From Gammaproteobacteria bacterium (GTDB lineage: Bacteria > Pseudomonadota > Gammaproteobacteria > JAABTG01): a DNA stretch of 64,000 bases. Shown here in pieces: positions 5,843 to 61,106 of the stretch. Numbering within the stretch: the stretch's first letter is position 1; each line of letters starts with the position of its first letter. The DNA is taken from assembly GCA_034522055.1 (NCBI GenBank), contig JAXHLS010000006.1, forward strand, positions 962,790-1,026,789, read 5' to 3'. The notes beneath the pieces are model-generated. The model ran no database searches, was not told the DNA's origin, and saw only the letters and a list, made by a program, of their open reading frames with translations. A program made the position numbers and the translations under genes.

Positions 5843-6420
5843 CTGGCAGCCGACGGGATCCCGGCGGGTGGCGGGCGGGATGTCGGTTGCCAGGAGCAAC
5901 CGACCTACATCCGTGCCCCGGGAACGGGCGGTGGGCGTACCTACGGGCCGGGATGTCGGGATGAATCCCGACCTACAAAAGCGCACCGAAATACGCGAGT
6001 GACGCGAAAAGGGAAAAGGTCAGGGAGGAGTGGCCGTTCGAAAAGGCGCAGCGGATCCACCGTTTCGGCGTCAGCAGAGCGGACGCACGGGTGGTAATCT
6101 TTTCCCATTTCCCATTTCCCATTTCCCATTTCCCATTTCCCATTCCCCCTGGGGAGAAGGACAGAGGCGTAGGTCGGCTGCTCTTGGCAGCCGACGGAAA
6201 CTCGGCGCTTTGCGGGCGCGGATGTCGGTTGCCAGGAGCAACCGACCTACATTCGTGCCGAAGGAACGGGCGGTGAGCGTATCTACGGGCCAGGATGTCG
6301 GGATGAATCCCGACCTACATTCGTGCCGAAGGAACGGGCGGTGGGCGTATCTACGGGCCGGGATGTCGGGATGAATCCGGACCTACATCCGTGCCAAAGG
6401 AATGGGCAGCGTATGCAGCC
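5843..6420. repeat. REP/BIME cluster (units GATGTCGG[GATGAATC/TTGCCAGGAGCAA]CCGACCTACATCCGTGCC, ~68-bp periodic sub-array)
   Basis: At least seven palindromic units occur between the helicase gene and fliK. Identical units recur at 26845..27058, 46189..46260, 46527..46552, 57201..57326, 60733..60767 and 61003..61028. Confidence 0.8.
5951..6210. repeat. Copy 1 of a ~300-bp MITE-like dispersed repeat (element A) containing a (GGGAAAT)5 microsatellite
   Basis: About 90% nucleotide identity, in reverse orientation, to 46189..46552 and 60733..61033. Contains TCCCATTTCCCATTTCCCATTTCCCATTTCCCATT. Bounded by REP palindromes. Confidence 0.8.
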
Positions 6421-13379: not shown

Positions 13380-13580
13380 TGGGTCCGCTGCGCTCGACCC
13401 ACCCTACGTAAGCTGAGCGCTGGCGCGAAACCCCGCGTAGGGTGGAACAAGCGCAGCGGTTCCACCGCTCCGGGCCCCGGGCATCGCCCCGGCGGCCGCG
13501 ATGGGTCCGCTGCGCTTGATCCGCCCTACGTAACCCGGACTGCGGCGCGCGACCCAGCGTCGGGTGAAACGAGCGCCTCG
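13380..13580. repeat. Tandem duplication of a ~95-bp unit in the fleR-fliE intergenic region
   Basis: Unit 1 (GGGTCCGCTGCGCTCGACCCACCCTACGTAAGCTGAGCGCTGGCGCGAAACC...TGGAACAAGCGCAGCGGTTCCACCG) and unit 2 (GGGTCCGCTGCGCTTGATCCGCCCTACGTAACCCGGACTGCGGCGCGCGACC...TGAAACGAGCGCCTCGCTTCCACCG) are ~75% identical. Confidence 0.7.
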
Positions 13581-13590
13581 CTTCCACCGG

Positions 13591-17906: not shown

Positions 17907-17985
17907 GCCCTACGGGCCACCAGCGAAAAGCGTAACCACGAAAGACGCGAAAAGGGAAAGGGGAAAAGGCCGGGGGGGTCGATTA
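17907..17985. repeat. Partial copy of dispersed repeat A (the GCGAAAAGCGTAACCACGAAAGACGCGAAAAGGGAAAGGGG end)
   Basis: Matches the terminal ~70 bp of element A. Confidence 0.6.
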
Positions 17986-26816: not shown

Positions 26817-27022
26817 GGGGGGAAGGATAATGCATATGGGGCGGGTTGTCGGACTGAAGTCCGACCTACAGTCCGACCTACAGCCCGACCTACAGAGACA
26901 CCACCACCGTCTGTTCCTGCGGCACCCGTGTAGGTCGGGATTCATCCCGACATCAAACCCCACCGCATGCACCACGGGCCGGATCGGAACCCCTATCCTT
27001 AGGTGTCGGGATAAATCCCGAC

Positions 27023-28159
<1,137 letters not shown>

Positions 28160-28642: not shown

Positions 28643-28683
28643 CGATGGAGACCTCGGTGGCGCGGTGGAGATGGATGATGAGC

Positions 28684-28850
28684 ATAGAGTGAATAGTGAA
28701 TAGTGAATGGTGAATAGTCGAGCCTCGCTCAGTGGTTGCTTTTACCATTCACTATTCACTATTCACTATTCACTGAATTGCACTATTCACTGCATTTCAC
28801 CATTCACTGAATTGCACCATTCACTAACGCCCCCTACTCCCCCCCCTTTC
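28684..28850. repeat. Heptamer array forming a large palindrome: (AGTGAAT)x4 - 30-bp centre - (ATTCACT)x4, followed by GAATTGCAC-(C/T)ATTCACT repeats
   Basis: Read directly: GTGAATAGTGAATAGTGAATGGTGAATAG...CATTCACTATTCACTATTCACTATTCACTGAATTGCACTATTCACTGCATTTCACCATTCACTGAATTGCACCATTCACT. It lies immediately upstream of the DUF411 gene start. Confidence 0.75.
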
Positions 28851-29322
28851 CATACCCCAATCGCCGGGCCGCGGCCTCTATGCCGCCCAGTTCGCCATCC
28901 AGGTCCGTGTCGTCGCAGGCGCAGTCCGGGCCGAGGGGGATGCCGGGCTCGGGGGCCATGTCCAGCTTCTCCTCCACGGGCATGAGGTCGAACATGAACT
29001 CGTTGGGATCGATGAAGCCGCAGGCTCGCAGGTCGCCGAGGGTGCGGGCGTGGCGCAGGGAATCGAGGAACAGGGCCCGATCGGCAGCGGCTGCGTGGCG
29101 GCCGTAGGCGGCGAACCGGGTCCAGCTGAACCACAGCAGCCCCGCGCCCGCCAGTCCGGCGGCCAGCACCGGAACCAGGCCGCCGGCGCCAGCCGCGAAC
29201 GCCATGCCGCCGCCGCCCACCAACAGGCCGCCCGCCGCCAGGCCGGCAACCGCCTGCCATCGCGCCTGCCGCACGGCCGCCGCGCGGCGCCCATGCTCGG
29301 GCGAGCGGCGGATATCCGCCAT
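28834..29322 (-). CDS. Hypothetical membrane protein (Gly/Ala-rich TM segment, Cys/Asp-rich C-terminus)
   Basis: Start trimmed to ATG 29322 (MADIRRSPEHG). The upstream part of the ORF is repeat B sequence, not coding. Confidence 0.45.
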   Translation of the reverse strand: MADIRRSPEHGRRAAAVRQARWQAVAGLAAGGLLVGGGGMAFAAGAGGLVPVLAAGLAGAGLLWFSWTRFAAYGRHAAAADRALFLDSLRHARTLGDLRACGFIDPNEFMFDLMPVEEKLDMAPEPGIPLGPDCACDDTDLDGELGGIEAAARRLGYGKGGE

Positions 29323-29344
29323 CACTGCATCGAAATCCCGCACA

Positions 29345-29560
29345 TCAACCCCCTCTGAACCAGTAACGTGAAAGTTGCGAAGCACGATCTGCCCCTCTCC
29401 CTCTGGGACAAATCCGTCGGGAACGGATTTGAACGCGCCCTGGCGCGGCCTGCAAGGCGAAGGGCAGGATGCCCGGAGTACAGGGATGGGGTGAGGGAAC
29501 GAACATGGCGATACGCATTCCTCTTTCATCATTTCGGGCGGCGCGTATCGCCATGAGAGT
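29345..29560. repeat. Copy 1 of the ~200-bp dispersed repeat B (two stem-loops)
   Basis: ~88% identical, in inverted orientation, to 40800..41010. Contains CATGGCGATACGC(n24)GCGTATCGCCATG and AAATCCGT-TCCCGA-CGGATTT. Confidence 0.75.
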
Positions 29561-38544: not shown

Positions 38545-40991
<2,447 letters not shown>

Positions 40992-41010
<19 letters not shown>

Positions 41011-46188: not shown

Positions 46189-46552
46189 CTACATCCGTGC
46201 CGTAGGAACGGGCGGAGGGATGTCTCTGTAGGTCGGGATTCATCCCGACATTACCGCTCCGATTCTGTCGGCTGCCAAGAGCAGCCGACCTACGCCTCTG
46301 TCCTTCTCCCCAGGGAAAATGGGAAAGGGGAACGGGGAAAAGATTACCACCCGTGCGTCCGCTCTGCTGACGCCGAAACGGTGGATTAGCTGCGCCTTTT
46401 CGAACTGCCACTCCTCCCTGACCTTCTTCCTTTTCGCGCCTTTCGCGACTTTCGTAGTTACCGCTTTTGTTTTTTTAATAACCCTGACCTTCTCCCTTTT
46501 CGCGTCTTTCGCGGTTACGCTTTTAGTAGGTCGGGATTCATCCCGACATCCC
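46189..46552. repeat. Copy 2 of dispersed repeat A (MITE-like), with only 2-3 GGGAAA(T) units
   Basis: About 90% identical to 60733..61033, in the same orientation. Carries an extra internal duplication (CCTGACCTTCTTCCTTTTCGCGCC...CCTGACCTTCTCCCTTTTCGCG). Confidence 0.8.
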
Positions 46553-54446: not shown

Positions 54447-54507
54447 GAGCGAAAAGCGTAACCGCGAAAGACTCGAAATTACGCGAAATGGGACAAGGTC
54501 GGGGGCG
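54447..54507. repeat. Partial copy of repeat A terminus
   Basis: GAGCGAAAAGCGTAACCGCGAAAGACTCGAAATTACGCGAAATGGGACAAGGTCGGGGG. Confidence 0.55.
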
Positions 54508-57200: not shown

Positions 57201-57326
57201 GTGGCACGGATGTCGGGAGTCATCCCGACATTCAACCCGGCCGCACACACCATGAGTCGGGCAGGAAATCCCGCCGGCGGGCTGTCGGGCTGTCGGGCTG
57301 AAGCCCGACCTACAGCCGACCTACAG
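57201..57326. repeat. REP cluster (GTCGGGAGTCATCCCGAC, GTCGGGCTGAAGCCCGACCTACAG, CCGACCTACAG)
   Basis: Same family as the other REP clusters. The last unit is the insertion target of the TniAB element. Confidence 0.8.
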
Positions 57327-60732: not shown

Positions 60733-61033
60733 TCTGTAGGTCGGTTGCTCTCGGCAACCGACATCCGCGCCCGCAAAGCGCCGAGTTTCCGTCGGCTGCC
60801 AAGAGCAGCCGACCTACGCCTTTGTCCTTCTCCCCAGGGGAAATGGGAAAGGGGAAACGGGAAATGGGAAAAGATTACCATCCGTGCGTCCGCTCTGCTG
60901 ACGCCGAAACGGTGGATTCGCTGCGCCTTTTCAAACGGCCACTCCTCCCTGACCTTCTCCCTTTTCGCGTCATTTCGCGTCTTTCGCGGTTACGCTTTTA
61001 GCCTGTAGGTCGGGATTCATCCCGACATTCAAC
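60733..61033. repeat. Copy 3 of dispersed repeat A (MITE-like), with (GGGAAA(T/C))~4
   Basis: Bounded by the REP units CTGTAGGTCGGTTGCTCTCGGCAACCGACAT and CTGTAGGTCGGGATTCATCCCGACAT. Immediately adjacent to the TniAB element's TSD. Confidence 0.8.
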
Positions 61034-61106
61034 CCCCGCGCTTCAACAGGATGTTGGCTTTCATTATGATTGCTTCCATCCGACTACGATCACGCGGGAC
61101 GGGGTA

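Follow-up and report, generated by a model that had tools for sequence, protein, structure and literature searches.

An inverted pair of AGTGAAT heptamer arrays between two genes of a gammaproteobacterium belongs to a widespread class of bacterial intergenic repeats

Heptamer repeats have been known since 2007 as the most over-represented long simple repeats of bacterial genomes, and the sole detailed study of their inverted pairs explained these through G-quadruplexes. Here, we examine a pair whose repeat unit cannot form one. The pair lies at positions 28,684–28,850 of a 64,000-nucleotide stretch of a Gammaproteobacteria bacterium genome (lineage JAABTG01; GenBank assembly GCA_034522055.1, contig JAXHLS010000006.1, positions 962,790 to 1,026,789 of the forward strand; hereafter the window), between the genes for a 169-amino-acid (aa) hypothetical protein and a DUF411/CopG-like protein. 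It consists of AGTGAAT heptamers that face their complement, ATTCACT, across a short centre. A first-pass annotation had described four direct heptamers, a centre, four inverted heptamers and extra units, and had offered two readings: a very large hairpin, or 8–10 phased sites in the promoter region of the DUF411 gene for a metal-responsive regulator. Is the tract a switch for the gene it precedes, or one instance of something more general?

We find that the tract is not a DUF411-specific array of binding sites for a metal regulator, and that any effect it has is generic rather than metal-specific. It belongs to a known and widespread class, the intergenic heptamer repeats of bacteria, as a member of the inverted ("convergent") pair type. 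At this spacer the inverted architecture is conserved among relatives, unit, copy number and centre turn over, and the two arms change together. Three regularities were recovered across the class: a G-containing arm that comes first, absence from divergent spacers combined with close abutment on stop and start codons, and concerted replacement of the unit at an orthologous site. As to function, we lean, short of even confidence, toward a slippage-driven repeat hairpin that is transcribed between cistrons and acts after transcription.

The tract has four parts (positions are those of the window; gene sense is the minus strand):

28688–28718, plus strand: arm nearest DUF411, AGTGAAT AGTGAAT AGTGAAT GGTGAAT AGT, or (AGTGAAT)x4.4 by sequence and Tandem Repeats Finder (TRF); in gene sense ACT ATTCACC ATTCACT ATTCACT ATTCACT, the C-containing, G-free 3' arm
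28719–28746: centre (loop) of 28 nucleotides (nt), with a small GC hairpin, GAGCCTCGCTC
28747–28774: inner part of the far arm, (ATTCACT)x4 on the plus strand and (AGTGAAT)x4 in gene sense, the G-containing 5' arm
28775–28826: three 17-nt higher-order units, GAATTGCAC(T/C)ATTCACT and GCATTTCACCATTCACT

The 17-nt units are heptamers with 1-nt insertions plus a dinucleotide, which brings the gene-sense 5' arm to about 80 nt. TRF reported one period-7 array at 28688–28718 (4.4 copies, 91% matches), a second at 28747–28826, and a period-17 higher-order repeat at 28750–28825 (4.6 copies, 87% matches). Scored as inverted arms, 28688–28718 and 28744–28774 span 31 nt each, are 94% complementary and stand 25 nt apart. 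The 14-mer AGTGAATAGTGAAT, allowing up to two mismatches, has 8 matches in the 64-kb window, all of them in the tract (shuffles expect 0.02), and the heptamer ATTCACT has 10, likewise all in the tract (2.3 expected), so that the array as described in the first-pass annotation lies far beyond chance and has no other copy in the window, as was claimed. Its AT-richness is equally plain: the GC content of the tract is 0.39–0.49 compared with about 0.70 in the flanks, or roughly 40% in a genome of roughly 70%. Two properties of the unit can be read directly from the letters. AGTGAAT contains no run of two or more G, and (AGTGAAT)n carries TGA or TAG in all three frames, whereas (ATTCACT)n is open in all three. 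As the window is part of a metagenome-assembled genome, its exact unit count may be unreliable; two independent assemblies of a relative (L275 and L276) nevertheless show the same inverted-array architecture.

The large hairpin of the first-pass annotation is borne out by prediction. The core (28680–28780) is predicted to fold as RNA at −45.7 kcal/mol (z −9.6), with a stem of about 30 base pairs, and as DNA at −27.4 kcal/mol (z −8.9), and either strand can form the predicted stem. The fold predicted for the whole spacer reaches −85.8 kcal/mol (z −6.6). A search of the whole window against Rfam 15 gave no family at the gathering threshold; the relaxed-threshold matches on the tract were generic miRNA-precursor hairpins far below threshold, which we dismissed as hairpin look-alikes.

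The regulator-site reading fared differently. We compared 81 DUF411 loci, comprising 80 orthologues from metagenomes (45–60% identity) and the closest relative, L121, and found neither ATTCACT nor AGTGAAT in the 300 nt upstream of the gene in any of them (0/81), the conservation that the first-pass annotation had proposed to look for. TGAAT and ATTCA pentamers occur there at background level. In L121, whose DUF411 gene is 90% identical to that of the window in amino acids and 86% in nucleotides, homology breaks off precisely where DUF411 begins, with a different gene upstream. The first-pass annotation had named two outcomes that would tell against it, namely a larger repeat family unrelated to the adjacent gene and absence from close relatives with the same gene. 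The first is what we found, and the second holds by half: the array is absent where synteny is broken (L121) and present where it is kept (L276). An unrelated heptamer array, (GGAACAT)x5, lies upstream of the DUF411 gene of another locus (L147), which indicates that such arrays land beside this family by chance.

What is conserved instead emerges from the spacer itself, which we located in relatives through homologues of the 169-aa gene, on contigs that span the orthologous spacer. In a relative with 80% protein identity, represented by two independent assemblies (L276 and L275), the synteny 167 aa–DUF411–mtnA is kept, and the 110-nt spacer holds AGTGAAT AGTGAAT GGTGAAT TGTGAAT, an unrelated 52-nt centre, three ATTCACT units and 11 nt before the DUF411 ATG. 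The 17-nt higher-order units are absent there, and the TGA stop of the upstream gene is part of the first heptamer. In L277 (85%), AGTGAAT-type units and ATTCACC units flank a centre of about 80 nt; the spacer of L278 and L279 (83%) pairs AGGGAAT with ATTCCC(C/T); that of L280 (80%) has GGGAAA(T/A) units on a contig that covers the 5' arm only; and that of L281 and L282 (60%) pairs GGGAAA(A/T) with ATTTCCC. Between L278 and L279, two samples with an identical flanking protein, the copy numbers of the 3' arm differ. The (GGGAAAA)n arm of L281 (1017–1078; protein P0127) is translated for 13 codons, and the protein has 182 rather than 169 aa because this unit lacks a stop codon. The centre sequence is not conserved among these spacers.

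In every orthologous spacer with both arms, the predicted fold pairs arm against arm. From five spacers we took the three inner units of each arm, connected the arms through an artificial GAAA linker and aligned the sequences manually; 94% of the cells pair, compared with 33–48% in slid registers. A change from U-A to G-C appears on both sides of the stem in every unit, and the covariation score was reached by 1 of 500 shuffles. Replacement of the unit with the arms kept complementary is unlike the behaviour of a sequence-specific protein site, and this swap among close relatives (AGTGAAT, AGGGAAT, GGGAAA[A/T]), together with the 81 DUF411 upstream regions that lack the motif and the absence of paired arrays from divergent spacers (below), led us to abandon the phased regulator sites.

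One sample, SRR28149506, departs from this arrangement, with the 169-aa gene (L274, 1232–1856) and the DUF411 gene (L121, 1199–1623) on separate contigs. L274 keeps only a degenerate remnant of an arm, GCGAATAGTATTAG..GCGAATGGTG, and L121 another, CTTCCACT..CTTCACT; if the two contigs are linked, as we infer, the remnants suggest an insertion or a rearrangement breakpoint inside the palindrome. Searching the DNA that parts the two genes in this sample for mobile-element genes, we found no transposase and one weak, sub-threshold match to a matrixin-type peptidase. Of the ten contigs of relatives that were retrieved by way of the 169-aa gene, six stop inside a repeat arm or just beyond one.

To place the tract in a wider setting, we surveyed one genome per species (596 Gb) for the exact 21-mer (AGTGAAT)x3. 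At least 120 stretches were found, where about 0.3 exact matches would be expected by chance, and the array stands beside unrelated genes in more than 120 species of many phyla. The counts from this survey given here and below hold among the matches listed, and open reading frames (ORFs) were called crudely, as the longest ORFs of at least 100 aa. Carriers include Bacteroidota, Acidobacteriota, Campylobacterota, Cyanobacteria, Chloroflexota, Clostridia, Planctomycetota, methanotrophs, Mesorhizobium and others. In the viral contigs of IMG/VR we detected 44 AGTGAAT stretches, a 3- to 7-fold excess over three control heptamers with the same base composition, which gave 8, 6 and 15; AGTGAAT is favoured but not unique among heptamers. 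TRF rows in the carrier loci are dominated by period 7 (363, compared with 45 of period 6 and 59 of period 8), and 138 of the 363 are the target, the rest being many unrelated units.

The paired arrays share a strict polarity. We oriented each locus on its ATTCACT run and sought a complementary array of at least three units, with at least 5/7 matches, within 200 nt; the partner lay 5' rather than 3' in 33:0 genome loci and in 10:0 viral loci. A count based on TRF placed the G-containing arm first in 52:0 AGTGAAT-like pairs, and inverted pairs of unrelated heptamers followed the same tendency (22 with the G-rich arm first, 4 with the C-rich arm first, 4 neutral). Stop-free pairs in the TRF survey stood at 5:2, G-first to C-first. 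Scans of viral contigs for (TGGGAAA)3 and (AGGGAAT)3 returned no inverted pairs and so do not separate "stops inward" from "G-arm first"; 8 of the 11 viral TGGGAAA matches share one near-identical flank and thus probably stem from a single phage family.

Position is constrained as well. Genes reading into the G-arm of paired loci mostly end within about 20 nt of the array, and in 25 of 39 single-arm cases a gene that reads in the G-containing direction stops no more than about 16 nt from the array; start codons follow the C-arm by 0–53 nt. Among paired arrays, 23 lie in co-directional spacers, 5 in convergent ones and none in divergent ones, whose baseline in the same loci is 17% (p=0.005), at odds with the promoter-region setting assumed in the first-pass annotation. 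Across more than 160 unrelated loci, every paired array has at least one gene that reads into it. In three methanotrophs (L011, L035 and L101) the array is operon-internal, between fliI and fliJ of a fliI-fliJ-fliK cluster, with 9, 4 and 5 ATTCACT units and differing G-arm units (AGAGGAA, GGTGAAA), and the last residues and TGA stop of fliI are supplied by the G-arm. A miniature inverted-repeat transposable element (MITE) was considered as the vehicle and rejected: the centres are unrelated both among orthologous spacers and in the survey, and no flanking or target duplication was seen.

These features coincide with those of the best-described relatives. Rehm et al. (2015) reported 186 and 183 arrays of GGGAATC type in two Xanthomonas genomes, typically of four units, with 70–75 pairs per genome in convergent orientation on opposite strands (PMC4692102). 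Most of these arrays lie between co-directional ORFs (16% are in convergent spacers and 7–8% in divergent ones), 83% occupy corresponding positions in the two species and keep their repeat type there, and most are transcribed (PMC4692102). Our tract likewise consists of tandem 7-nt units, is intergenic, forms a convergent pair with the G-arm first, and keeps its position while length and sequence vary. As in the GGGAATC repeats of Xanthomonas and the GGGGA(T/C)T repeats of Nostoc, the arrays hold about four units and vary in length (PMC4692102), and GGGAATC is near kin of the GGGAAAT/TGGGAAA units of the window and of the AGGGAAT units of L278. Dispersal within the window differs by unit, with no second AGTGAAT array in the 64 kb and three arrays of TGGGAAA. 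In contrast to the Xanthomonas repeats, AGTGAAT lacks G-tracts and cannot form a G-quadruplex or i-motif, its G-arm carries stops in three frames, and its carriers span many phyla rather than one genus. Membership is therefore in the architectural class and not in the G-quadruplex subclass, and the recurrence of the same architecture from a non-quadruplex unit points to a hairpin or to 7-nt phasing as the common denominator. A literature search for strings of AGTGAAT or ATTCACT dimers found no paper among those covered.

A mechanism has to be read against the genes around the tract, which fills the 191-nt spacer between two minus-strand genes:

28834–29343, minus strand: upstream gene, 169-aa hypothetical protein, GTG start, with a hydrophobic Gly/Ala-rich segment
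28163–28642, minus strand: downstream gene, DUF411/CopG-like protein of 159 aa (PF04214, E 1.5e-27)
27023–28159: mtnA, beginning 3 nt after the DUF411 gene

The PF04214 match confirms that the tract stands directly upstream of a DUF411/CopG-like gene. The upstream membrane-protein neighbour of the first-pass annotation is also present, but it encodes 169 rather than 232 aa, because the N-terminal extra of the longer ORF is a dispersed intergenic repeat of about 195 nt (29364–29560). GC content at third codon positions is 0.88 in the 169-aa gene compared with 0.59 in that extension, and a 169-aa database protein from a Gammaproteobacteria metagenome-assembled genome (P0121) is 99% identical to the upstream protein, with other homologues at 60–85%; no Pfam family matched the 169-aa protein. 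The repeat has an inverted copy at 40806–41000, between a 398-aa gene and ligA (94% identity over 166 nt); the copy at 29364–29560 separates an 84-aa gene from the 169-aa gene, where relatives have 19–28 nt. It has no Rfam match and may represent a small RNA or a MITE.

Read in gene sense, the spacer runs from the TAG stop (28834–28836) through 8 nt to the first heptamer (28819–28825), the G-containing arm of about 80 nt, the centre, the 31-nt C-containing arm and 45 nt that include a GAGG Shine-Dalgarno sequence (28652–28655) before the DUF411 ATG. Consensus scans of this spacer and of the L276 spacer detected no sigma-70-like promoter and no intrinsic terminator-like site. An intrinsic terminator was rejected on its anatomy as well: the stem has about 29% GC and is followed by CUCUAUGCUC, not by the combination of a GC-rich stem and a U-tract.

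Together these observations suggest how the preferred hairpin might work. Slippage during replication, along with template switching from arm to arm, would lengthen, shorten and homogenise the arrays. As the spacers of 110–191 nt are fully occupied and hold no promoter-like or terminator-like site, the element would be co-transcribed within an 84aa-169aa-DUF411-mtnA message. The long intercistronic RNA duplex may block 3' exonucleases, by analogy with repetitive extragenic palindromic (REP) elements, or it may be cut by RNase III, by analogy with a heptamer hairpin of Haemophilus. Either way, it would uncouple the stability and translation of the upstream gene from those of DUF411, with a strength set by a repeat number that slippage can adjust. 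With the G-arm first, the C-rich, G-free arm would find its partner already synthesised and pair at once; more speculatively, that arm, if left single-stranded, might load Rho and be tolerated in operons only once its complement has been transcribed. Incoming ribosomes would meet stops in all three frames of the AGTGAAT units. As an explanation of the polarity, stop codons fit AGTGAAT and fail for the GGGAAA(A/T) units.

Comparison with other palindromes and heptamers lends shape to this proposal. REP elements and the bacterial interspersed mosaic elements (BIMEs) built from them are transcribed palindromes of co-directional and convergent spacers, rare in divergent ones, that protect the mRNA upstream of them from 3' exonucleases. 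A REP has a fixed sequence of about 35 nt, is copied genome-wide and is mobilised by RAYT (REP-associated tyrosine) transposases. The paired arrays resemble REP/BIME in their spread over spacer types and differ in that their stem is made of tandem 7-mers whose sequence drifts. Among heptamers, the cyanobacterial short tandemly repeated repetitive (STRR) sequences were reportedly described by Mazel in 1990 as direct arrays. These repeats and the so-called long simple sequence repeats (SSRs) are, like our arrays, intergenic heptanucleotides over-represented in particular genomes, with slippage invoked as their origin; unlike the tract, they are described as direct arrays, with no rule of polarity or of arm coevolution in the portions of those reports available.

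Two further systems have been characterised more closely. In Beggiatoaceae, Cyanobacteria and Bacteroidetes, MacGregor (2015) described direct arrays of TAACTGA repeats that closely precede start codons, and proposed that they regulate translation (PMC4679880). They share with AGTGAAT a single heptamer in short intergenic arrays, occurrence in distant phyla, a distance of a few nucleotides to starts, and stop codons (TAA/TGA) within the unit; by contrast, 169 of their sets are direct and one is indirect (PMC4679880), whereas our tract is defined by its inverted pair. At the hmw1A locus of H. influenzae, Rapun-Araiz et al. described (ATCTTTC)n repeats that are transcribed into a long 5'-untranslated-region hairpin processed by RNase III, with hairpin and transcription both required for expression and for change in repeat number (PMC12721329). 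Both elements are heptamer SSRs directly upstream of a gene, with a long hairpin in which the repeats serve as an arm and with variable copy number. Repeat number tunes expression post-transcriptionally at hmw1A (PMC12721329), and here the corresponding hairpin is a prediction. At hmw1A the repeats make up the 5' arm, which is rich in pyrimidines, and their partner is a G-rich region outside the repeats, giving the opposite polarity and one repeat arm only; hmw1A is also a contingency locus of a host-adapted pathogen.

Several observations weigh against a transcribed, functional hairpin. Pairing is not obligatory for the class, as about two thirds of the AGTGAAT arrays at other loci lack a partner arm. 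Both arms can change in concert without selection if replication switches template from one quasi-palindromic arm to the other; the covariation is therefore no proof of an RNA structure, and it amounts to one or two evolutionary events, spread by concerted evolution, in five hand-aligned sequences. We looked for a strand-specific G-U signature in the arm mismatches and found none, the mismatches of L277 being A-C in gene-sense RNA. Finally, Rehm et al. accounted for their pairs through G-quadruplexes and i-motifs and found no functional correlate (PMC4692102).

The alternative that survives best, which we regard as possible yet somewhat less probable than the transcribed hairpin, is that the arrays are functionless, self-perpetuating SSRs. 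Units of about 7 nt would slip efficiently, template switching would keep the arms complementary, and the rules of polarity and position would reflect tolerance only: no open arrays that read through into genes, no free rut-like (Rho utilization) C-rich RNA in operons, and no disturbed promoters. The dominance of period 7 and the fast turnover of units, copy numbers and centres are consistent with this, as is the finding that the control heptamers also form viral arrays (6–15 stretches, compared with 44). The 13 extra residues of the L281 protein need be nothing but an ORF reading into a stop-free array, and Mrazek (2007) ascribed the over-representation of heptamers to polymerase slippage (as cited in PMC4679880 and PMC4692102). 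Against it, the inverted architecture survives to 60% protein identity despite complete turnover of the unit, AGTGAAT exceeds its composition-matched controls, and the 43:0 and 52:0 polarities together with the exclusion from divergent spacers require selection of some kind.

A bolder form of the hairpin reading would make the pair a selected, cross-phylum module of intercistronic spacers and gene 3' ends. Its G-rich arm would come first, it would occur only where a gene reads in, and stem complementarity would be selected while the unit drifts; it would act by shielding the C-rich arm from Rho, as a tunable barrier to RNase III or exonucleases, or both, and AGTGAAT would be favoured for closing all frames. 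We consider this version unlikely.

Less probable again is an element that acts as DNA, as a cruciform or hairpin or through nucleoid proteins phased at 7 bp, and that serves as a hot spot of recombination or insertion or as topological punctuation. The predicted DNA hairpin is strong, the palindrome is symmetric with equivalent strands and no G-U signature, the degenerate arm remnants on separate contigs of SRR28149506 suggest a breakpoint in the palindrome, and six of the ten contigs from relatives break off in or just beyond an arm. Contig ends at repeats are, however, an assembly effect, the L274–L121 link is an inferred one, and neither the exclusion from divergent spacers nor the tight abutment on stop and start codons is predicted by a DNA-level role.

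We hold a combined terminator and promoter to be quite improbable, with transcription of the 169-aa gene stopping at the hairpin and that of DUF411 starting from a promoter in the AT-rich tract. In its favour are the position of the array directly behind a stop codon, the enrichment of the class in co-directional and convergent spacers, the high AT content of the tract within a GC-rich genome, and the match of TTCACT to TTGACA at 4/6 positions. But both consensus scans were negative, U-tract and GC-rich stem are lacking, the 11 nt between arm and ATG in L276 are too short to hold a promoter beyond the hairpin, and the methanotroph array lies inside a fliI-fliJ-fliK cluster, where read-through is expected.

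Least credible of all is control of DUF411 by a metal-responsive factor at 8–10 phased TGAAT/ATTCA sites, after the manner of the ToxR-bound TTTTGAT heptads of the ctxAB promoter: the array does lie upstream of a CopG-like gene and regulator-recruiting heptad repeats do exist, according to the available part of a preprint (bioRxiv 10.1101/2021.05.14.444153), but the unit is not conserved at orthologues, the paired arrays shun divergent promoter regions (0/28) and stand beside unrelated genes in many phyla and in phage contigs, and no regulator gene is adjacent.

For annotation, it follows that a tract of this kind should not be labelled an operator of its neighbouring gene, and that arrays can supply or remove stop codons, as with the TGA in the first unit of L276 and the protein of L281 with its 13 added residues. 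The three regularities yield hypotheses open to test in carriers that grow in culture, such as Methylotuvimicrobium buryatense 5G (L011, 3661–3830), whose array occupies the fliI-fliJ spacer.

The window contains further repeats. The three TGGGAAA arrays lie within the copies of a dispersed element some 260 bp long, which are 90–96% identical and located at 5987–6251 (inverted), 46263–46454 and 60735–60972; these copies carry 6.9 units (6101–6148), about 4 degenerate units (near 46310) and 4.9 units (60838–60871) respectively; the same unit forms the arms of the orthologous spacers in L280–L282. REP-like hairpins with the sequence GTAGGTCGGGATTCATCCCGAC(AT) and variants occur at 5878–6410, 26847–27074, 57211–57260 and 61008–61057, partly in 68-nt tandem units and partly as inverted pairs (families D1, D2 and I6). 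A direct pair of 88-nt repeats with 78% identity lies at 13380–13467 and 13502–13589, and an element of 44–56 nt that begins GCGAAAAGCGTAACCGCGAAAGAC... is found at four sites (17919–17962, 46488–46531, 54449–54504 and 60947–61002).

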